Shown piece after piece: positions 3,869 to 32,000 of a stretch of 32,000 nt of DNA (positions are counted from its first letter, which is position 1; each line of letters starts with the position of its first letter). The notes beneath the pieces are model-generated. The model was not told the origin of the DNA, ran no database searches, and was given only the letters and a program-made list of their open reading frames with translations. The stretch is from NCBI GenBank assembly GCA_027460535.1, contig JAPZAR010000025.1:73322-105321 (forward strand), in the 5' to 3' direction. The translations under genes and the position numbers were made by a program. The DNA is from Candidatus Methanoperedens sp. (GTDB lineage Archaea; Halobacteriota; Methanosarcinia; Methanosarcinales; Methanoperedenaceae).

Positions 3869-4455
3869 AGAAAAAGCCTGATATCCACTATATTTTTAAG
3901 ATTGGTGGAGGGATCAATATCCTTTATCGGATTGGCAGGATTAAAAACATCACTGTTGTGCAATACGATTTTCCTGGATACTATTACAACGTTATTCGAT
4001 GGGACACCTGCGTATATCCATTCTTCCGGGGCCGATGATACTGTAATGTTATCTGAAATAAAGAGAGAAGAGATCTCCACCTTGTGGGCTATGCCCTGCC
4101 TGCCTAACGTCGCGCTCAAGATCCCTGTCAGGTTATTTACAAGGCTGGTTGCATTACGTGGATCGTTGGTATTTTCCAAATACTTTGTACCATTCCACAC
4201 ATATTGCTCTCCAGTCCAATTTAAGATATCATTTTTGAGATTTGAATTATACCCAGGCTCTGTATAATCCAGCGTGTTCAAAATATCCTGGCCCATTACT
4301 GCAAGCTCAGTGTCCATATGCACATTTGAGGTTGACGAGGTCAGAGGCGTCATCGAGGTCGCATCTATTGCATATATAATTACCATAAGCAGGAGCGTTG
4401 TGGCAACCACTCCCTCGAGTGTATGCATCTGGGCTTTTTCATCTAACATTACCAT
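3856..4455 (-). CDS. Type IV pilin-like protein (class III signal peptide)
   Basis: 199-aa ORF. The N-terminus MVMLDEKA|QMHTLEGVVATTLLLMVIIYAI has an acidic residue shortly after the putative cleavage site, as in bacterial type IV pilins. It overlaps both neighbouring genes. Confidence 0.55.
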   Translation of the reverse strand: MVMLDEKAQMHTLEGVVATTLLLMVIIYAIDATSMTPLTSSTSNVHMDTELAVMGQDILNTLDYTEPGYNSNLKNDILNWTGEQYVWNGTKYLENTNDPRNATSLVNNLTGILSATLGRQGIAHKVEISSLFISDNITVSSAPEEWIYAGVPSNNVVIVSRKIVLHNSDVFNPANPIKDIDPSTNLKNIVDIRLFLWRT

Positions 4456-5054
4456 ACCCTCACTGAAATGATAGCTGATTCATTATAGCCTGTGGATGAA
4501 TTTACGATTAAGACAAGCCTCTTGCTCTGGCCGATATTTATGTTTTCAGGAAGTTCTGGGCCACTCTGGTTCATTATACTGCCATCAAGACGTGTTGCCG
4601 AGATATTCACATCAAAAATGATTTCATTGCTTAACAGTCCAAGTTCACCAAGTTCATTATTGTAATAGGTCTGGTTAGAATGGTTCAACTTCATGTTATT
4701 GAAGTAATACAATTTGCCCTGGTCTATAATATTCATAGCCCCTGCTTTATCAGCAACCAGCAGTCGCTCCACCAGCACTGTGCTGACTCTGTCCGCAGCC
4801 AGTACAACTTCATCCGATCCCGACTGGAAAGGAATGAACAATCCATAAATGAACTGGAACACAAAGGCTACAGCAAGGAGAAAAATGCCCATGCCTGCGG
4901 CATAGTCAATCGTCATCTGGGCCTTATCATCTTTCACAGTGCCAATCTTGTTTTGGATTGTATTAAGATTAATGAACAACAATTGCCGCCCATAGCATGG
5001 AAATAGACCAGAGCTCATATGTGAAAAATAATCTTTTAGCACCATTATACTCAT
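4449..5054 (-). CDS. Type IV pilin-like protein (class III signal peptide); true start probably internal
   Basis: The ORF track gives 201 aa, but the pilin-like signal is ..VKDDKA|QMTIDYAAGMGIFLLAVAFVFQFIYGLF. A GTG at 4937 would give a leader of the same length and pattern as the neighbouring MVMLDEKAQMHTLEG protein. The upstream 39 codons look non-coding. Confidence 0.5.
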   Translation of the reverse strand: MSIMVLKDYFSHMSSGLFPCYGRQLLFINLNTIQNKIGTVKDDKAQMTIDYAAGMGIFLLAVAFVFQFIYGLFIPFQSGSDEVVLAADRVSTVLVERLLVADKAGAMNIIDQGKLYYFNNMKLNHSNQTYYNNELGELGLLSNEIIFDVNISATRLDGSIMNQSGPELPENINIGQSKRLVLIVNSSTGYNESAIISVRVW

Positions 5055-5105
5055 AATGATATGCTGCTATTACAAAAACCTTCTGGCCTGATATAGCCGT
5101 TATAT

Positions 5106-5585
5106 TTATCTCACTTCGACCACCGTATCAAGCACCATGGTCTTGAAAGGATACAAAATTATTTTGACATCATACTTTTCACCCGATAACATAACCCCGG
5201 CTGTACCATCGGTATAGACCGAACGATTGGTAACGGTATAGTTTCCAGCGCCGCTGGTCAGATTGTAGGTTATTATCTGGTCTCCAGCCCTGAGGTCGCT
5301 TCCCGGATTTGAGATTTTATAAACAGGCGGCTCTCCGGCCGGAACGATGGATATCTGCCAGTCCGTTCCAACTAATCTATCCCCGGCTTTGTGCTGTATC
5401 TTGATATCGATTCCAGTAGTATCAGTATCGCTCGAAACTACAATAGCAGCCGTAGGTCCTTTCTGGTCAGGTTTTCCCATTCCAAATACGAACATTAAAA
5501 CCAATGAAGCCAGCATTACGGTAACCGCCACCATCAAAATGACTCCTATGACAGGCGATACCGCCTCATCATTCCCTTTCTCCAT
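5106..5585 (-). CDS. Archaeal type IV pilin, DUF1628/Pilin_N family (major-pilin paralog 2)
   Basis: 159 aa. MEKGNDEAVSPVIGVILMVAVTVMLASLV is the signature N-terminus of archaeal Pilin_N (DUF1628) proteins. The C-terminus YDVKIILYPFKTMVLDTVVEVR is paralogous to the upstream gene. AGGA lies ~8 nt before the ATG. Confidence 0.8.
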   Translation of the reverse strand: MEKGNDEAVSPVIGVILMVAVTVMLASLVLMFVFGMGKPDQKGPTAAIVVSSDTDTTGIDIKIQHKAGDRLVGTDWQISIVPAGEPPVYKISNPGSDLRAGDQIITYNLTSGAGNYTVTNRSVYTDGTAGVMLSGEKYDVKIILYPFKTMVLDTVVEVR

Positions 5586-5597
5586 TCTCTATATCCT

Positions 5598-5640
5598 TAA
5601 AAAAAAATAAAAAATGCCCCTCAAAAAAAGTAAAAGGGGC
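5598..5640 (-). terminator. Intercistronic stem-loop plus long U-tract between the two major-pilin paralogs
   Basis: The minus-strand RNA reads GCCCCU-UUUACUUUUUUUG-AGGGGC (6-bp GC stem, arms at 5616-5621 / 5635-5640), followed by A-U6-A-U9 (plus-strand A runs at 5599-5607 and 5609-5614). It lies directly downstream of the 5652 stop and upstream of the 5585 start. Confidence 0.4.
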
Positions 5641-5651
5641 TGGTATTTCAG

Positions 5652-6140
5652 TTACCTTACATCTACTACTGTATCAAGCAACATGGCATTGGACGGGATG
5701 TGAACTAATTTAACATCGTATTTGCCAACCAACATGGCGGTACCACCCATTACACTTTGGTTTGTTACAATAGGGGCTGAAGCATCTGTTGTCGTGTTAG
5801 CGATGATTTGACTTCCAACTGAAAATGTGCCCAATGATGAGTTTGAAGTCACAAATACAGGGGGATTGCCAGCAACGACTACGGATAACTTCCAGTCCCC
5901 GCCTTTCAGTGTATCTCCGCCTTTGTGCTGTACCTTCAGATCAGGTGCTGTTGTATCAGGGTTGTTCGCTCCGGTTATACTTGCTGTCGGCGCGGCTACC
6001 TGCTGGCCACCTAATCCGAACACGAATGCAGCTATCACGGCTGCCAATATCACAGTTATCGCCACCATGAGGATAACACCTATGACAGGCGACACTGCAT
6101 CTTCATTTCTTCTAAACATTTTCATATACATATCCTCCAT
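5652..6140 (-). CDS. Archaeal type IV pilin, DUF1628/Pilin_N family (major-pilin paralog 1)
   Basis: 162 aa. ..MFRRNEDAVSPVIGVILMVAITVILAAVIAAFVF carries the Pilin_N signature. The Ig-like body motif (LKVQHKGGDTLKGGDWKLSV) is typical of this family. The C-terminus YDVKLVHIPSNAMLLDTVVDVR matches paralog 2. Confidence 0.8.
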   Translation of the reverse strand: MEDMYMKMFRRNEDAVSPVIGVILMVAITVILAAVIAAFVFGLGGQQVAAPTASITGANNPDTTAPDLKVQHKGGDTLKGGDWKLSVVVAGNPPVFVTSNSSLGTFSVGSQIIANTTTDASAPIVTNQSVMGGTAMLVGKYDVKLVHIPSNAMLLDTVVDVR

Positions 6141-19881: not shown

Positions 19882-20463
19882 TTATGAGGCTACAGGTTCA
19901 GCCTCTATTTCTGTCTTCCTGACCTCGACTCTTCTGAGGGGATATATCGGCTTAACGTCATGATAAATATTAGCAGAGAGCTTCCCTGTAACGATTTCCT
20001 GGACGAACTGAGCCAGATCCAGTTCTTTCGCTCTTGAGATTATGACATTATTCATTATCAAGCGGATGGCTTTTATCTGATTAGCTCGCGCCCTTTTTAT
20101 GGTGAAGCATGAAGGTTTGACTCTTATGGTATAATCATCCTTGGTCTTCACTGAAATGTTTGATTCTATGCTCGATGTCTGTCTTTTTACAAGTGAGCGC
20201 AGGTAATCCTGCGTAAGCTGATGCCCTGTGAATTTTGTATATGCCGAGTCTCCGCCGACGCGGTCCACTTTCAGAAGCAGTTTGATGTTCTGCTTTGACA
20301 TATCGTTGGTCAATTCCCCAAGGGTTACCTCGATGACCCTTCCCATTAATTTCTCAGGCACATCTGCTACTGTTTCTCCGATGTTTGCTTTTCCGAACAT
20401 GTCGGGTGCGACCATGTTGTACCAATTTTTAGCTTTCCAGCCTTCTGTTTTTGTAACTGCCAA
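19882..20463 (-). CDS. rps3ae: 30S ribosomal protein S3Ae (eS1)
   Basis: MAVTKTEGWKAKNWYNMVAPDMFG...VIEVTLGELTND..KLLLKVDRVGG matches the archaeal/eukaryotic S3Ae family along its full length (193 aa). Confidence 0.9.
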   Translation of the reverse strand: MAVTKTEGWKAKNWYNMVAPDMFGKANIGETVADVPEKLMGRVIEVTLGELTNDMSKQNIKLLLKVDRVGGDSAYTKFTGHQLTQDYLRSLVKRQTSSIESNISVKTKDDYTIRVKPSCFTIKRARANQIKAIRLIMNNVIISRAKELDLAQFVQEIVTGKLSANIYHDVKPIYPLRRVEVRKTEIEAEPVAS

Positions 20464-20633: not shown

Positions 20634-21674
20634 ATGGCAAATATATCGATCATAGGCAGCGAGAAATCAGGGAGAACAAGTCTTGCCGCAAACCTTGGAA
20701 AGAAGGGCACCGAGTCGGATATTACGCTCTATAATTTTGTAAAAGGAGATCAGATCTATTCTTTTGTCGACGCTAATGGCTATCCAGGCTCTTTGAAATC
20801 CCTGATCAACGCAATAAATCTCTCGGATATCGCCCTTATCTGTGTTCCATCAACTGGATTAAATGCACAGGTAGGCGAATGTATCGTTGCACTTGACCTG
20901 CTTGGTAACAAACGCGGGTTGTTCTTGATCACAATGTCGGACACATCAAACCCCGTGGCGCTTTCTGGGCTGTCTGAAAAAATAAAGGCCATAACAAAAG
21001 GCACAAACCTTGAGAGCTGGGGATCAATTGCCATCTCCACAACAAGCTTTGAAGGAATGGAAGACCTCAAGGGGAAAATTTTCGCGCTGGGAGAGGAAGC
21101 AAGCAGAAGCAATTCTGCAAAGAACGACCTTCCTACTCGCGTGATAGTGGACCATTTCTTTAATGTGACAGGTATAGGATGTGTGGTGCTGGGCGTCGTG
21201 ATCCAGGGGACTCTCAAGATGCATGACAACCTTAACGTTTTTCCAATAAACAGGCCGACGGAGATACGATCCATCCAGAGCAATGATGTGGATATGAAAT
21301 CCGCGAATGCCGGCATAAGGGTGGGACTTGCGCTAAAAGGAGTTCAGTCAAAGGATTTCGACCGTGGATATTTAATTTCGCAGAGGGAAGAGGTATCTTC
21401 CAAATTCAGCCTGAAATGCCGACTCACGAGGTTCACATCCGGGCTCGGCGTAGGGGATACCGTTCATCTATTCGCAGGGCTCCAGGTGATGCCTGCAACG
21501 ATCGGGACCATTTCAATAGCAGGCAAAGATGTCACACAGGCTCCGCCGGGTTCTGAGTGTGACGTTTCCATGACGACCCAGAGCAATATCGCATACACTA
21601 AAGGTGATCGATTCCTTATCGCACAGCTCAACAATCCCAAACAGAGGCTTGTTGCAGGCTGTGAGGTCGTGTAA
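20634..21674 (+). CDS. EF-Tu/SelB-like translational-GTPase homolog with degenerate G motifs
   Basis: 346 aa. A G-domain-like N-terminus (IIGSEKSGRTS, VDANGYPG, LITMSD) is followed by an EF-Tu domain-2-like barrel (VIVDHFFNVTGIGCVVLGVVIQGTLKMHDNLNVFP..EIRSIQSNDVDMKSANAGIRVGLALKGV). Confidence 0.6.
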   Translation: MANISIIGSEKSGRTSLAANLGKKGTESDITLYNFVKGDQIYSFVDANGYPGSLKSLINAINLSDIALICVPSTGLNAQVGECIVALDLLGNKRGLFLITMSDTSNPVALSGLSEKIKAITKGTNLESWGSIAISTTSFEGMEDLKGKIFALGEEASRSNSAKNDLPTRVIVDHFFNVTGIGCVVLGVVIQGTLKMHDNLNVFPINRPTEIRSIQSNDVDMKSANAGIRVGLALKGVQSKDFDRGYLISQREEVSSKFSLKCRLTRFTSGLGVGDTVHLFAGLQVMPATIGTISIAGKDVTQAPPGSECDVSMTTQSNIAYTKGDRFLIAQLNNPKQRLVAGCEVV

Positions 21675-22457: not shown

Positions 22458-23285
22458 GTGCATATGAAAAAAATCGGGTTGATCTCCAGATGCGACAGGG
22501 ACGATGTGCTTGCTCTTGCTGACGAGATCGTAAATCACCTCAGCTCAAATGTGGAAGTGCTCATAGATATGAAGACGGCCGAGAAAATCCATCGTAAGGG
22601 TACGCCTGTTGCTGAAATGAGAAAAAAAGGAGCTGAATTCGTAATTTCCATAGGGGGTGATGGGACCGTGCTTCGCGGGATCCAGAAAATGGAGGACCCT
22701 CTCCCTGTGCTCGGGATAAACATGGGAACTTTCGGGTTCCTTGTGGATGTAGATCCGGAGGAGGCGCTCACGGTCATAGATAAGGTGCTTTCCGGTTTTG
22801 AGGTGGAAGATCGCTCCCGGCTTGCGATCATGCTCAATTATGAGCCTCTTCCTCCCGCCACCAATGAAGTTGTGATAATCACAGCAAATCCCGCAAAGAT
22901 CTTGTCTTACAGGATATTCGTGGACAAGAACCAGTTAGAGGAACTGAGGGCGGATGGTGTGGTTTTTGCCACGCCCACGGGCTCCACGGCCTACGCCATG
23001 AGCGCGGGCGGGCCCATAGTGGACCCGGGCGTTGACGGCACGGTGATAGTCCCATTGGCTCCTTTCAAATTATCGTCGCGTCCTTGGGTTGTCCCGGCCA
23101 AAAGTGAGATACGGGTGGAACTCACAGTCCCGAAAAAGGAAGCTGTGATCGTGATAGACGGACAGCATACGAGAAAGATAAAAGAAGATGACACGATCTT
23201 TATCACGAAAGCGGATAAGCCCGCAAGGTTCGTGAAGACGAGGAAGGATGGGTTCTACGAAAAAGTAAAAAGCAAGCTTGCATGA
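22458..23285 (+). CDS. nadK: NAD kinase
   Basis: It has GGDGTVLR, GINMGTFGFL and ADGVVFATPTGSTAYAMSAGGPIV. The start is either the GTG at 22458 or the ATG at 22464 (MKKIGLISR). Confidence 0.85.
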   Translation: MHMKKIGLISRCDRDDVLALADEIVNHLSSNVEVLIDMKTAEKIHRKGTPVAEMRKKGAEFVISIGGDGTVLRGIQKMEDPLPVLGINMGTFGFLVDVDPEEALTVIDKVLSGFEVEDRSRLAIMLNYEPLPPATNEVVIITANPAKILSYRIFVDKNQLEELRADGVVFATPTGSTAYAMSAGGPIVDPGVDGTVIVPLAPFKLSSRPWVVPAKSEIRVELTVPKKEAVIVIDGQHTRKIKEDDTIFITKADKPARFVKTRKDGFYEKVKSKLA

Positions 23286-23322: not shown

Positions 23323-23808
23323 ATGATCATTATCGGAATTGACCCAGGACTTGCCACTGTCGGCTTTGGGGTCTTACGAAAAGAGAAAAACACGATAACA
23401 CCTGTCAGCTATGGATGCATAAGAACCCCTGCTGAAAAACAGGTTCCTGAACGTCTTCTGGAAATATACTCTGAGATCTGCACATTGCTTGAAAAGTATG
23501 CCCCGTCCGCGGTCGCAGTCGAGAGACTCTTTTTCAATAAGAATGTCACAAACGCGATGAGCGTGAGTGAGGCAAGGGGTGTCATCTTTCTTGCCGTGCA
23601 GCAAAAGAGTATCCCGATCTTTGAATATACCCCGAACCAGATAAAACAGGCCATTACAGGCTCGGGGCGGGCGGATAAAAGACAGATGCAGGAAATGATA
23701 AAAAGGCTTTTGAACCTGGATGAACTGCCGCAGCCCGATGATGCGGCGGACGGGCTTTCGATTGCTTTATGCCATATAAATATAATTGAAACTGGATTAT
23801 GCCATTAA
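23323..23808 (+). CDS. ruvC: Crossover junction endodeoxyribonuclease RuvC (bacterial type)
   Basis: 161 aa. MIIIGIDPGLATVGFGVL.., VAVERLFFNKN, ..ITGSGRADKRQMQEM.. and ..PDDAADGLSIALCH carry the full RuvC catalytic-residue series (D..E..D/H). Confidence 0.9.
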   Translation: MIIIGIDPGLATVGFGVLRKEKNTITPVSYGCIRTPAEKQVPERLLEIYSEICTLLEKYAPSAVAVERLFFNKNVTNAMSVSEARGVIFLAVQQKSIPIFEYTPNQIKQAITGSGRADKRQMQEMIKRLLNLDELPQPDDAADGLSIALCHINIIETGLCH

Positions 23809-23813
23809 TAACG

Positions 23814-23859
23814 TTTTTTATGGCTGTGAGCGTGTGTGGTCTATTCATTCGGAATAGGC
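23814..23859 (+). terminator. Oligo-T tract and short hairpin immediately after ruvC
   Basis: T6 at 23814-23819 lies 6 nt after the TAA. A hairpin follows (GTCTATTC-attcg-GAATAGGC, 23839-23859, with one G-U pair). Archaeal terminators are typically oligo-T. Confidence 0.3.
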
Positions 23860-24222
23860 TCAAATTGAAAACTAACTCCCGCCAATCCCTAAACTTTATC
23901 TTATTTTTAGGAAGTCGAGCCCCATAAACGCAATATGAGGCATTTTTTGTCTTTAAGCGGTACCAGTCTATTTTTAATAGCAGGGCGATTGATGACGGCA
24001 TGAAAGATTTTATCAGTGCATGCTCAAGGCAATATAGGCGAATTTTAACTGGAGAAATAAAGGTGTTCAGTAAGTTTTTATATTATGTGCTTTATATGTA
24101 TACCTTATATAGAGAGTTTCCTCGCCTAAAGCAAAAACTATATAATACAATAATTAAAGAGTATACGGTGGTGAAAGGCTCCAAAACTTTTAACATAAAA
24201 ATTCTTATAGAGGATGTACCCA

Positions 24223-24483
24223 ATGAATGACGAAGAAATAAAATTTGAAGAAATTAATCTCGAAGAAAAAAGGATTTTATTGGACATTCTTGGTTATGAA
24301 GTTGGCGAAGCCGGTATACTTTTAGATAAAAATACTAAGAAAGAGCATATCTGTCCAATAACAGACAGCGTTGTTTTTATTGAGAATGCGTCTGTTTTGC
24401 CTGGCTCCTCCGTTGTTATTAACACTTCTGAACTTTCTTTAGCGGAATATTTTACAAAATTCGTTGAAATGCGATGTAAGTAA
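24223..24483 (+). CDS. Hypothetical small acidic protein (island ORF-A)
   Basis: GAGGA lies 8 nt upstream of the ATG at 24223 (the track start at 24214 is also an ATG). The product is 86 aa and Glu/Asp-rich (MNDEEIKFEEINLEEKRILLDILGYEVGEAG..). Its stop overlaps the next start (TAATG). I recognise no family. Confidence 0.5.
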   Translation: MNDEEIKFEEINLEEKRILLDILGYEVGEAGILLDKNTKKEHICPITDSVVFIENASVLPGSSVVINTSELSLAEYFTKFVEMRCK

Positions 24484-25247
24484 TGATTATTCCTGCCGAT
24501 ATACCTCCCGACCTTCTAGATAAAACTCTTCCTGAACTTTTAAAACTTGTTGCCTTACAAAAACTAACAGGAAAAATATTAGATTGGGCTACACAAAGAA
24601 TAAAGGAACTGTGGGAGAAACGAGAGTATGGATTTACTCCTGAACCTGATGTCGCCTCTGGGCTACAAAAAATTAGTAAAAGCGACGCATATAGAAGAAT
24701 GAAAGAGTGTATCGGAAATCATCGTTTTTTAGGATTGGTAAAACTTGGGTTCAGAGTTGATGAACTTAACGAACAGGGAAATACAACAGCAATAGCCAAG
24801 ATTAAGAGTAATGTATTTGAAAAACATGGGGTTGAAGGAATTAGAATACTTACAATGGGTACAACAGGAGTACTTACGGGAATAATCCAGTACCTTAGTG
24901 ACATGAAACTCAAAAACGATTATAGCCAAGCTATTATGGCAGACCATTTTGAGAAGATTATTAAAAACTGGATGCAGATAACGATATTCCATCAGGCAGT
25001 ACAAGGGCAAAGAACATTAGAAAAAGGCATTCTTACTTATATGAAGGCTAACTACGATATATTTTTTGTATTTTCGATGGGCACCGCAAGTGAACAAGCC
25101 ACAAAACTTATTGCACAACTTAAAAAAGATGGAATCATTAAGAAGAATGGGTATATGTTTGACCTATATCGAAGAAGGGAAGTGGCTGGAAGAGTAATGC
25201 ATACGTGGGTATTCCAAAATATAAAAGAGTGGAGACCATTTGTTTGA
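24483..25247 (+). CDS. Hypothetical 254-aa protein (island ORF-B)
   Basis: This is a long uninterrupted ORF in a ~30% GC region, where stop codons are frequent by chance, and it is coupled to ORF-A. I could find no Walker A, no TM helices and no motif I can assign. The C-terminal segment YDIFFVFSMGTASEQATKLIAQLKKDGI has an alpha/beta-fold look only. Confidence 0.6.
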   Translation: MIIPADIPPDLLDKTLPELLKLVALQKLTGKILDWATQRIKELWEKREYGFTPEPDVASGLQKISKSDAYRRMKECIGNHRFLGLVKLGFRVDELNEQGNTTAIAKIKSNVFEKHGVEGIRILTMGTTGVLTGIIQYLSDMKLKNDYSQAIMADHFEKIIKNWMQITIFHQAVQGQRTLEKGILTYMKANYDIFFVFSMGTASEQATKLIAQLKKDGIIKKNGYMFDLYRRREVAGRVMHTWVFQNIKEWRPFV

Positions 25248-25501
25248 GACGGTCATCTTTAATTTTATTTCCATGAATATGAACAATAAACACTGAGATT
25301 AAATACAAACCTCTGACTAGTTGGGATATTAGCGAACAATTCAACGAATATCTATTTATCATAAATCATATAATTACAAACATATTTTTATATCCCAAGG
25401 AACACCTCTAAAAACGAAACTAAAAATATAAAACAAGCATGTATAGAAGATATGAATAATTACATAATTTCAAATTTCATATTAATATAATGAGATAATA
25501 T

Positions 25502-26092
25502 ATGATTTCACATATATATGGCGAGATCGCGCACGTGGGCGGAGGATTTGTTGTGATCGATGTCGGGGGCATGGGATATCAGGTCAATGTGACAAAACCT
25601 GTGTTGCAGGAGCTTGCTACAAAAAAAGAAAAAATAAAACTGTACACATACCTCCATGTCAGGGATGATGCCCTGATGCTCTATGGGTTCATGACATCTT
25701 CCGAGCTTGAGATGTTCAAACTTTTAATAAGTGTGACGAGGGTTGGCCCGCAGATAGCGCTATCCATCCTGTCCCAGATAAAGATCGAAGAACTCGCTGG
25801 AGCTATAATCTACGAGGATGAAAAGATCCTGACAAGTATTTCAGGTATCGGCCCGAAAAATGCCAAGAGATTGATACTGGAACTCAAGGATAAGATAAAA
25901 AAGAAAATGGAAAATTATCAGGGTCACATTCCTTCGAGCAATGTGAATTATGACGCAGTTAGCGCGCTTGTATCGCTTGGATTCACACAGCGTGAAGCCC
26001 AGGAAGCCGTGGATTCTGTTTCATCGGGATTGAAAGAGCCCACAGTCCAGGTATTGATCAAAGCCGCACTTACAAGATTGAAAGAGCGTTAG
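25502..26092 (+). CDS. ruvA: Holliday junction branch migration complex subunit RuvA
   Basis: MISHIYGEIAHVGGGFVVIDVGGMGYQVNV.. is the OB domain. ISGIGPKNAKRLILELKDK provides the HhH motifs. The C-terminal domain III (ALVSLGFTQREAQEAV) is also present. Confidence 0.9.
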   Translation: MISHIYGEIAHVGGGFVVIDVGGMGYQVNVTKPVLQELATKKEKIKLYTYLHVRDDALMLYGFMTSSELEMFKLLISVTRVGPQIALSILSQIKIEELAGAIIYEDEKILTSISGIGPKNAKRLILELKDKIKKKMENYQGHIPSSNVNYDAVSALVSLGFTQREAQEAVDSVSSGLKEPTVQVLIKAALTRLKER

Positions 26093-26095
26093 AGT

Positions 26096-27082
26096 ATGGA
26101 AGAAAGAATCATCACCCCGGTCTTGCTGAATGAGGAAAAGGAAGATATAACCATCCGTCCAGGCCGGCTTGACGAATTTATCGGTCAGAATGCCCTGAAG
26201 GAATCCCTGAAGGTATTCATCGAAGCCTCAAAAAAACGCGGCGAACCTCTTGACCACATCCTCTTTTCAGGCCCGCCAGGACTCGGGAAGACAACGCTTG
26301 CCCATATAATAGCCCGTGAGATGGGCACCGGTATTAAAGCCACGTCAGGACCTGTCCTGGAAAAACCCGGGGACCTGGCGGCAATCCTGACAACACTAAA
26401 GAATGGTGATGTGCTATTCATCGATGAGATACACCGCTTGAATTCTGTTATAGAGGAAATACTCTATCCTGCAATGGAGGATTTTGAGATCGATGTAATG
26501 ATAGGGGAGGGACCGAGCGCCAGGTCGATAAAGCTTGATCTTGAGCATTTTACCCTTATAGGTGCGACCACAAAAGTGGGCCTTCTGGGTTCGCCTTTCA
26601 GGGACAGGTTTGGTTTCATATCACGTCTCACCCTCTATGAAGTCGGTGAGCTTGTGCAGGTAGTAAAGAGAAGTGCCTACATACTGGGAATCCCGGTAAC
26701 GCAGGACGGATCGGTGGAAATAGCCAAACGCAGCAGGGGCACGCCCAGGATCGCGAATCGGCTGCTCCGGCGTGTGAGGGATTTTGCTATGGTGAGGGCC
26801 CAAGGAGAGATTACGCAGGTGGTGGCAGATAATGCGCTTACTATGCTTGGTATAGACAAACTCGGACTGGATGACCTCGACAGGCGCATACTTTCTGTGA
26901 TAGCGGATGATTTTGATGGAGGACCCGTAGGCGTGAAGACCATTGCAATCTCAGTGGGCGAAGAGGTCAGGACGATAGAAGAAGTTTATGAACCATATCT
27001 TATCCAGATCGGATTTATAAAGCGAACGCCGCAGGGAAGGGAGACAACCCCGGCTGCAAGGAAGCATATCGCAGCATCATGA
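26096..27082 (+). CDS. ruvB: Holliday junction ATP-dependent DNA helicase RuvB
   Basis: It has [11 protein letters not shown], Walker A ([11 protein letters not shown]), Walker B ([10 protein letters not shown]), sensor regions ([23 protein letters not shown]) and a winged-helix C-terminus. It starts 4 nt after ruvA. Confidence 0.95.
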
Positions 27083-30976: not shown

Positions 30977-31040
30977 TTATGGAACAGATGATTTGATATC
31001 TATTCGACCTGCGATTTTTTAGGTGACCGTTTCAATTCGT

Positions 31041-31120
31041 GTTGGTAGTTAGGTCAATGTGCAACACAACACAAATATCTTCTTTGCCTAAAACTTTTAG
31101 TTGGTAGTTAATCCAAATGT
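31041..31120. repeat. Two copies of GTTGGTAGTTA(N2-3)TC(C)AAATGT-like motif, 59 bp apart, in an intergenic region
   Basis: Copy 1 is at 31041-31060 (gttggtagttaggtcaatgt) and copy 2 at 31100-31120 (gttggtagttaatccaaatgt). The 11-nt core is identical. Confidence 0.3.
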
Positions 31121-31269
31121 TAATCACAAGTACATATATTGTTTTCTGACACAATGCAAGGAGTAGATTTAACGTCTCCCTGGAAGACAGCGGTCTACTC
31201 CCTCACGACAGCTCAATTAAGAGTCATATAAATATTCTTATCAGATATAAGAAAAAGAATATGCCAAAG

Positions 31270-32000
31270 TCAAGTTATTTTTGGAACAACTGAAAATCCA
31301 TTGTTATTCCAGTTTGCAAAGTTATCTGCTGTATCGTTGAATACAACACCTTTGTCTGTCGTAACCGTAATATCATCTATATACAAACCGCCATTTCCAC
31401 CATTAGAGTAAGGTAAATTAAAGAACAATATTTTTATCTCTTTACCAATATAACTAGACAGGTCTATTTTATGTGTAGTCCAAGGCTGTTTACCATAAAA
31501 TATTGAAACACTACAAACATCTGTACTATCACAGATCTTTCGCTTAGCTTCCTGATAATATGAACTCACAGAATAATTTATTTTATATTCAAGAGTCGCT
31601 GAATTAACCCCCTTTAGATTTATGTAATTTTTTGTTTCAATATTAGACGTATATTTGCCAGACCAGAATACATTGTTTATTGAATTCGTCAACCGAATAG
31701 CATCTATATGGGGGAAACAACATGTGTTATCAGCAACAATTTTGAGCGTATGAATACCTGAGGTTGTTATAGTTAAGGTTCCTTGCTTTTCCCAGATTCC
31801 AGAACTCAGATACCAGCTTCCAGTGCTTGAAGCGATCCCATTATCAATAACTTTAACATTGTCAAGATATATATCCTCTGGACGAGACCATTCCGCAGCA
31901 TATTTTATCTCAAGATTGTAAGAACCCACAGATGGAAAGTTAATATCATATTCTACAGAATTTGGACTACTGCCACCATTAAAAATATGCTTGCCACCTG
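31270..32000 (-). CDS. Partial CDS (5' end off-window): secreted beta-sandwich protein with a CBM6/35-like carbohydrate-binding module pattern
   Basis: The reading frame stays open from 31929 to the window edge (..GGKHIFNGGSSPNSVEYDINFPSVGSYNLEIKYAA..). The stretch GSYNLEIKYAAEWSRPEDIYLDNVKV...HTLKIVADNTCCFPHIDAIRLT resembles CBM6/35 modules. The gene is AT-rich (~30% GC in a hand-counted 50-nt sample). Confidence 0.5.
   Translation of the reverse strand, partial: GGKHIFNGGSSPNSVEYDINFPSVGSYNLEIKYAAEWSRPEDIYLDNVKVIDNGIASSTGSWYLSSGIWEKQGTLTITTSGIHTLKIVADNTCCFPHIDAIRLTNSINNVFWSGKYTSNIETKNYINLKGVNSATLEYKINYSVSSYYQEAKRKICDSTDVCSVSIFYGKQPWTTHKIDLSSYIGKEIKILFFNLPYSNGGNGGLYIDDITVTTDKGVVFNDTADNFANWNNNGFSVVPKIT

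Follow-up and report, generated by a model that had tools for sequence, protein, structure and literature searches.

Bacterial-type RuvABC on a Candidatus Methanoperedens chromosome, with a small insertion between ruvC and ruvA

The subject of this report is the set of ruvC, ruvA and ruvB genes carried by a 32,000-nt stretch of DNA from Candidatus Methanoperedens sp. (GenBank assembly GCA_027460535.1, contig JAPZAR010000025.1, positions 73,322 to 105,321 of the forward strand), which we refer to as the window. All three genes are co-oriented on the + strand in the order ruvC-ruvA-ruvB but are split by a 1705-bp insertion. Proteins of these families form a well-studied machine: a RuvA tetramer binds and opens the four-way junction, RuvB AAA+ hexamers bring about branch migration by pumping DNA, and the junction is resolved by a RuvC dimer that nicks two strands. 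The substrate of these activities is DNA structure, and RecA is not needed for them.

The ruv genes and their chromosomal setting

The first gene, ruvC (23323-23808, + strand), encodes a Holliday-junction endonuclease of 161 aa that matches the family PF02075 (E=6.5e-52; 175.8 bits at a cutoff of 22.2) as well as the curated models NF000711 (225.1 bits, cutoff 163) and TIGR00228 (141.6 bits, cutoff 100.65). It aligns over its full length to the solved structure of E. coli RuvC (1hjr, E=4e-34), and in this alignment its acidic residues D7, E67, D140 and D143 match the four catalytic ones of E. coli RuvC (D7, E66, D138 and D141). The Holliday-junction binding subunit RuvA (25502-26092, + strand, 196 aa) comprises the domains RuvA_N (residues 1-62), HHH_5 (72-130) and RuvA_C (148-193), matches TIGR00084 with 200.8 bits (cutoff 85) and aligns in full to 7x7q (E=5e-31), with two HhH motifs, the acidic pin D55-D56 and domain III all present. 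The AAA+ branch-migration motor RuvB (26096-27082, + strand, 328 aa) follows closely, with matches to RuvB_N, AAA_lid_4 and RuvB_C, to NF000868 (500.8 bits, cutoff 282) and to TIGR00635 (460 bits), and with a full-length alignment to 7x7q (E=2e-126). Its motifs include a Walker A GPPGLGKTT (59-67), a Walker B LFIDEIH (107-113), an RDRFG with the arginine finger (169-173) and a sensor-2 region (215-226).

A previous interpretation made from the letters alone, which we call the sequence-only reading, had described three intact proteins with full motif sets; the gene boundaries and protein lengths that it gave were exact, and all models and motifs passed. Judged by profiles, structural alignments and motifs, the three genes are true orthologues of bacterial-type RuvABC. 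By homology, a RuvA tetramer would bind the junction, RuvB hexamers would migrate the branch and a RuvC dimer would cut. We would expect the proteins to be biochemically active in the archaeal cell, and it is plausible that they cooperate with, or act downstream of, RadA-based recombination.

The host of the window is Candidatus Methanoperedens (Methanoperedenaceae), of whose chromosome it forms part, and the closest RuvB loci, which are 84-86% identical, likewise come from Candidatus Methanoperedens. Profile searches on the 5' side of the ruv cluster identified ribosomal protein S3Ae (19882-20463, - strand; PF01015, E=2e-73; NF003142, 272 bits), which marks the contig as archaeal chromosome, an EF-Tu-like protein, an IMPase/FBPase-family phosphatase and NAD kinase (22458-23285, + strand; Pfam domains NAD_kinase and NAD_kinase_C). 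In this Methanoperedens lineage NAD kinase is the conserved 5' neighbour of the ruv genes, and it ends 37 nt before ruvC starts, as the sequence-only reading had it. Genes for CcmB, CcmC and MfnB (4-HFC-P synthase, E=2.5e-92) lie farther upstream, along with those for an HrcA-CBS regulator and a CofH-like radical SAM enzyme. The same region holds a type IV pilus locus that encodes three archaeal proteins of the Pilin_N (formerly DUF1628) family; S3Ae, MfnB and the pilins had been cited as signs of an archaeal setting, and family matches bear this out. An OppBCDF-type ABC transporter is encoded 3' of ruvB. Scans of the entire window for tRNA genes and against Rfam gave no matches, profile searches found no integrase in the flanks of the ruv genes, and no yebC was seen within the window.

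Composition, integrity and distribution of the ruv locus

RuvABC is overwhelmingly bacterial, the C-A-B gene order is common in bacteria, and the cluster context differs among Methanoperedens species, all of which would fit a recent horizontal acquisition of bacterial ruvCAB by this one genome, as the sequence-only reading had proposed. The composition of the genes speaks against it: their overall GC content, their GC content at third codon positions (GC3; 0.50-0.52) and their codon-usage distance (0.16-0.19) lie within the range of the remaining window genes and are indistinguishable from those of the flanks. The nonsynonymous divergence (dN) from other Methanoperedens orthologues, which is 0.08-0.15 for ruvC, 0.13-0.18 for ruvA and 0.09-0.12 for ruvB, is comparable to that of the adjoining NAD kinase and IMPase genes against the same relatives (0.08-0.16). 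Across many species pairs the ratio to synonymous divergence (dN/dS) is below 0.1 for the ruv genes, though these values are rough because dS is saturated. Such low ratios, together with a dN like that of housekeeping neighbours, indicate strong purifying selection and co-descent with those neighbours. Unlike a recent genomic island, the ruv genes have native composition, no tRNA and no flanking integrase, and they are present throughout Methanoperedens. The NAD kinase-ruvC adjacency is moreover kept in related species, and the closest relatives (76-88% identical) are all Methanoperedens, against 63% for the best bacterial RuvB. We therefore regard a recent acquisition as extremely improbable.

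The sequence-only reading had also named a chimeric assembly as its alternative. The data are metagenome-derived and the GC content drops abruptly at 23.8-25.5 kb, which is what bacterial and archaeal DNA joined by misassembly or bin contamination could look like. However, a protein of 254 aa encoded in the insertion occurs in exactly the same form on seven contigs, including NCBI GCA_027460495.1 (79.8 kb) and a Logan assembly of SRR15677233, and these contigs, which stem from different assemblies and samples, agree in gene order from S3Ae through opp, so the locus is not chimeric. In addition, NAD kinase and ruvC adjoin each other on single contigs of three independent metagenomes (L092, L095 and L108; L numbers denote loci that were compared with the window), and ruvCAB is found on Methanoperedens contigs of 0.5-2 Mb. 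The GC drop itself is explained by an insertion that cleanly duplicated 14 nt of its target, described below, and not by an assembly join. We thus reject a chimera, to which we give next to no credence.

A scan for RuvB in one genome per GTDB species gave identities of 70-72% in Methanomicrobiales (Methanoregula, Methanospirillum; 80% for a partial match, L009), 63% in Methanocella and 56-63% in bacteria, and Methanoperedens and Methanomicrobiales share 39-62% identity for RuvA and RuvC. Among 5.8 billion proteins, at least 120 clusters of RuvC (at the 90% level) are 76-88% identical to that of the window. Every named cluster listed is annotated as "crossover junction endodeoxyribonuclease RuvC" and assigned to Candidatus Methanoperedens, uncultured archaeon, Euryarchaeota or Methanobacteriota, with some members on contigs of 0.75-2 Mb. 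Vertical inheritance and wide occurrence of RuvABC in this archaeal order is the outcome that the sequence-only reading had itself named as contradicting it, and at least at the family level this is what we find.

To sample loci independently of ruv, NAD kinase was used as a bait in JGI metagenomes. Ruv genes adjoined it in 10 of the 12 informative Methanoperedens-like loci, and three of these (L092, L095 and L108) have the orientation seen in the window. On the opposite strand, ruv genes lie beside NAD kinase in L096, L097 (3188-5250), L098, L100, L101, L102 and L111. Those of these loci that have all three genes (L097, L100, L101, L102 and L111) read ruvB-ruvC-ruvA, which is C-A-B circularly permuted and points to a tandem duplication with subsequent deletion, or to some other rearrangement. 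A contiguous ruvCAB stands beside DUF447-CitG in L003, L088 and L089; ruvB is alone in this same context in L001, and the ruv genes of L090 are non-contiguous. The cluster is also contiguous in L086 and L087, and in these as in L003, L088 and L089 ruvA starts 3-4 nt past ruvC. Immediately 5' of ruvB, the sequence is not ruvA in L001, L002 and L004.

Some of these loci hold further genes related to DNA repair or of bacterial type. At L086 (7001-14471), the ruvCAB cluster precedes a MazE-PIN pair, which is followed by herA (DUF87), nurA and a rad50-like SMC gene, an arrangement showing that archaeal end-resection genes coexist with the ruv cluster. On the Methanoperedens contig L090 (4883-7480), bacterial-type queA and tgt (366 aa) are found directly 5' of ruvC and overlapping it. 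In many bacterial loci queA-tgt come after ruvB, and their presence at L090 hints at the transfer of a larger bacterial fragment. L004, from a Methanoperedens-like genome, encodes the exonuclease VII subunits XseA (E=1e-87) and XseB (E=2e-22), a typically bacterial repair system, at 4280-5726, ca. 4 kb upstream of ruvB and beside a KaiC-family ATPase.

The 1705-bp insertion and its two-gene cassette

The gap between ruvC and ruvA measures 1693 nt (23809-25501) and is low in GC (0.34-0.37 vs 0.45-0.50 in the flanks). We attribute it to an insertion of 1705 bp on the + strand (23787-25491, including the right copy of a direct repeat), which was delimited by empty sites in relatives, GC content and codon usage. 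The sequence-only reading had presented ruvCAB as one whole module; its order and orientation hold, but contiguity does not, since it overlooked this insertion that splits ruvC from ruvAB and accounts for ca. 45% of the interval that it reported. Both flanks align to the uninterrupted ruvC-ruvA junctions of L003, L088 and L089, where they overlap by 14 nt. A repeat search found these 14 nt twice in the window, with the left copy CATATAAATATAAT at 23773-23786 as the duplicated target at the 3' end of ruvC and the right copy CATATTAATATAAT at 25478-25491. The copies are 13/14 identical and 1705 bp apart, exactly at the breakpoints set by the empty sites. A 14-nt overlap in relatives that is present twice in the window argues for a clean insertion with target duplication, and the predicted empty site reads ...GCCATATAAATATAATGAGATAATATATG... 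The insertion is absent at the uninterrupted junctions of L003, L086, L087, L088 and L089, relatives with interrupted junctions have unrelated inserts, and an exact search for its left end in JGI metagenomes found none.

Insertion at this site displaced the last two codons of ruvC. Compared to the empty site of L003, the ancestral end ...NIMR* became ...NIIETGLCH*, in which the last seven residues (IETGLCH) stem from inserted DNA, and because of this rewritten C-terminus RuvC has 161 aa as opposed to 155-157 aa in orthologues. One could consequently suspect that the ruv genes are decaying, non-functional relics and that the operon was disabled here by an insertion parting ruvC from ruvAB and altering RuvC, all the more as ruvB lacks a nearby ruvA or ruvC in some species. 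Yet all reading frames are intact with all catalytic motifs kept, the low dN/dS across many species pairs speaks for selection, and the C-terminal change falls beyond the final conserved position of the alignment with E. coli RuvC. Relatives, too, commonly have AT-rich spacers between ruv genes that are intact, so separate transcription seems to be tolerated. That these genes are relics is thus very unlikely.

Other Methanoperedens species repeatedly show low-GC stretches (GC 0.28-0.40) where the genes of their ruv cluster meet, in the form of spacers or small cassettes. We observed them in L108 (7345-8137 and 8723-9564), L100 (9200-9659), L101 (8887-9301 and 9761-10448), L001 (1-1851), L004 (8000-9979) and L002 (9783-10000). 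The junctions between ruv genes therefore look like points of repeated insertion or rearrangement.

The open reading frames (ORFs) of the insert are codon-usage outliers with a GC3 of 0.29-0.31, and the insert, unlike the ruv genes, has the composition of a recently transferred island. Three ORFs were compared with Pfam, NCBIfam, PADLOC and PHROG without any match, and so no transposase or integrase family was found among them. Of the features that characterize transposons or casposons, the insert shows target-site duplication but neither a recombinase nor terminal inverted repeats, as its best end-to-end inverted alignment scored 14 vs a shuffle mean of 15.2. A casposon or insertion sequence was considered and dropped because the inverted ends did not exceed those of shuffles.

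Two of the ORFs form a cassette. The smaller gene (24223-24483, + strand) encodes 86 aa as publicly called beside the 254-aa gene in L081, L083 and L084; its longest ORF spans 24214-24483 (89 aa) and has an orthologous 89-aa ORF in L083. Its stop codon overlaps by 1 nt with the start of the second gene (24483-25247, + strand), which encodes the 254-aa protein of an uncharacterised conserved archaeal family. This family has 49 homologues, all labelled "hypothetical", in Methanoperedens, Methanosarcinaceae, Methanohalophilus and Lokiarchaeota, and none was found in IMG/VR. The pair of 86- and 254-aa genes recurs at unrelated Methanoperedens loci (L083, L084/L085) with ca. 80-85% DNA identity over ca. 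1.1-1.2 kb. A third ORF of 76 aa (24000-24230) is partly conserved, uncalled in public annotation and probably no gene. In an AlphaFold2 model of the 254-aa protein (pLDDT 90.5), the N-terminal part is helical and the C-terminal domain has the order beta-alpha-beta-alpha-beta-beta. The best Foldseek matches of the model were to Alba/Sso10b (E 0.04-0.5; TM(target) 0.6-0.7), with nothing at E <= 0.001 in PDB and BFVD. The predicted C-terminal domain thus weakly resembles Alba, and a role in nucleic-acid binding would be a guess. A toxin-antitoxin or defence cassette was also considered: no known toxin, antitoxin or defence family matched, and the sole resemblance is the overlapping two-gene layout.

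Another compositional outlier lies at the edge of the window (31001-32000, and 31270-31929 on the - strand; GC 0.34, GC3 0.27). Its gene at 31270-31929 specifies a protein of 219 aa in which an InhA-like MAM domain was recognised (E=4e-9), and this stretch may be another foreign insertion. Upstream of the ruv cluster, the EF-Tu-like protein (20634-21674, 346 aa) has a Pfam match restricted to EF-Tu domain 2 and a partial match to selB (TIGR00475) that, at 133 bits, is under the cutoff of that model. The gene for this EF-Tu/SelB-like protein is kept 5' of IMPase-NAD kinase in relatives.

Origin of the module and its known counterparts

In neighbour-joining trees, a phylogenetic comparison that the sequence-only reading had called for, Methanoperedens and Methanomicrobiales form one clade among bacterial sequences with bootstrap values of 100 (RuvB), 90 (RuvA) and 79 (RuvC) out of 100. 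Methanocella falls outside this archaeal clade, and its RuvA and RuvC are grouped with those of a Firmicute. A single small archaeal clade amid bacterial sequences points to an ultimately bacterial origin of the module, and according to these trees it entered this archaeal group once, long ago. What stands of the proposed horizontal acquisition is therefore the bacterial origin, while its implied novelty and recency are contradicted by native composition, dN and the at least 120 RuvC clusters. Within the clade, Methanoperedens is placed beside "Methanomicrobiales MM4" with a bootstrap of 99 for RuvC and 63 for RuvA. The trees of these two proteins would thus favour an acquisition by Methanoperedens from a Methanomicrobiales relative, and the RuvB tree does not.

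We consider it highly probable that the window represents Methanoperedens chromosome with functional RuvABC orthologues that are anciently bacterial, have since been inherited vertically within the family and were recently interrupted by an insertion. Bacterial ruv genes would have entered archaea long ago, giving rise to the single clade common to Methanoperedens and Methanomicrobiales, and would thereafter have been handed down within Methanoperedenaceae like any other housekeeping genes under selection, with a place beside NAD kinase in the present lineage. More recently, an AT-rich 1.7-kb insertion with a two-gene cassette would have hit the ruvC/ruvA boundary of this genome exactly, duplicating the 14-nt target, swapping the last two RuvC codons and uncoupling ruvC from ruvAB.

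Several points weigh against this interpretation. The trees are neighbour-joining only and include the 80 most similar loci, with shallow bacterial sampling. For RuvB, the bootstrap value uniting Methanoperedens and MM4 is just 6, and the trees point to no particular donor, nor do they fix which way a transfer between Methanomicrobiales and Methanoperedens would have gone; any such direction between archaea is something that we infer. The saturation of dS blurs the estimates of selection, and the insertion may reduce expression of ruvAB or alter RuvC. Finally, the cluster context varies among Methanoperedens species (DUF447-CitG, HerA-NurA or NAD kinase) and ruvB is apart from ruvA and/or ruvC in L001, L002 and L004, so inheritance has involved rearrangement.

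Instead of spreading between archaea, RuvABC could be ancestral to Methanomicrobiales and Methanosarcinales/Methanoperedenaceae and have been lost many times. That each of the three proteins yields one archaeal clade with good support would agree with this, as would the deep divergence between Methanoperedens and Methanomicrobiales (RuvB 70-72%, or 80% for the partial L009; RuvA/RuvC 39-62%). However, a survey of 97 archaeal genomes found RuvABC in only two, Methanoregula boonei and Methanospirillum hungatei, and called this horizontal transfer (Zhang et al. 2012, PMC3403352); most of the others, which should include Methanosarcina, were without it. The nesting of Methanoperedens beside one Methanomicrobiales metagenome-assembled genome (MAG) in the RuvC and RuvA trees fits a lateral step between archaea, and for both RuvA and RuvC the copy of Methanocella sides with Firmicutes. 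Ancestry with many losses is thus unlikely, though a serious contender.

The presence of RuvABC here is already known in so far as public annotations name RuvC and horizontal transfer has been published for related methanogens. RuvABC is also mentioned in a genome note on a Methanoregulaceae MAG (PMC6498233), and our literature search found no paper on RuvABC in Methanoperedens. New details are limited to the 1.7-kb insertion and to the way in which the cluster has been reshuffled from species to species. According to a review, Hjc is present in all archaea (PMC7776575). With Hjc of P. furiosus and A. fulgidus as queries, tblastn gave no match in the window or the compared loci, and A. fulgidus Hjc matched only Archaeoglobi and Methanosphaera in a large protein database, a search in which a word prefilter restricted the matches.

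A much bolder scenario would make the imported RuvABC the main Holliday-junction system of Methanoperedenaceae (and Methanomicrobiales), wired to RadA and Mre11-Rad50-HerA-NurA and partly or wholly supplanting Hjc/Hel308. It would have spread from archaeon to archaeon, the operon having been "archaealised" by AT-rich spacers and cassettes that leave each gene with its own promoter, and the cassette of 86 and 254 aa would be a new small mobile unit. We regard this scenario as quite unlikely. The more sober interpretation of anciently acquired and since vertically inherited genes already implies that a recombination machine which textbooks treat as "bacterial-only" has a stable place, kept by selection, in the genome of an environmentally important family of methane-oxidising archaea. 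This is useful for annotating Methanoperedens genomes and for considering how bacterial DNA-repair modules integrate with RadA-based recombination. It opens no new question, and the inserted cassette and the varied arrangement of the ruv genes offer no more than modest leads.

Compared with known systems, the locus resembles bacterial RuvABC of E. coli, P. aeruginosa and T. thermophilus (1hjr, 7x7q and 1ixr) in domain architecture, catalytic and ATPase motifs and C-A-B order. It differs in that the host is an archaeon with RadA and not RecA, that ruvC is split from ruvAB by a 1.7-kb insertion, and that NAD kinase is found upstream in place of the usual bacterial partners. With the RuvABC of Methanomicrobiales such as Methanoregula boonei and Methanospirillum hungatei it shares the same archaeal clade and the occurrence of a bacterial-type module in methane-metabolising Halobacteriota, though the genes of the window belong to a different order and family (Methanoperedenaceae). 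The archaeal Hjc/Hje, Hel308/Hjm and Hef proteins serve the same cellular task at Holliday junctions and stalled forks and are encoded neither in the window nor in the compared loci, but their folds and families are unrelated to Ruv, Hjc for instance being a PD-(D/E)xK nuclease (PF01870).

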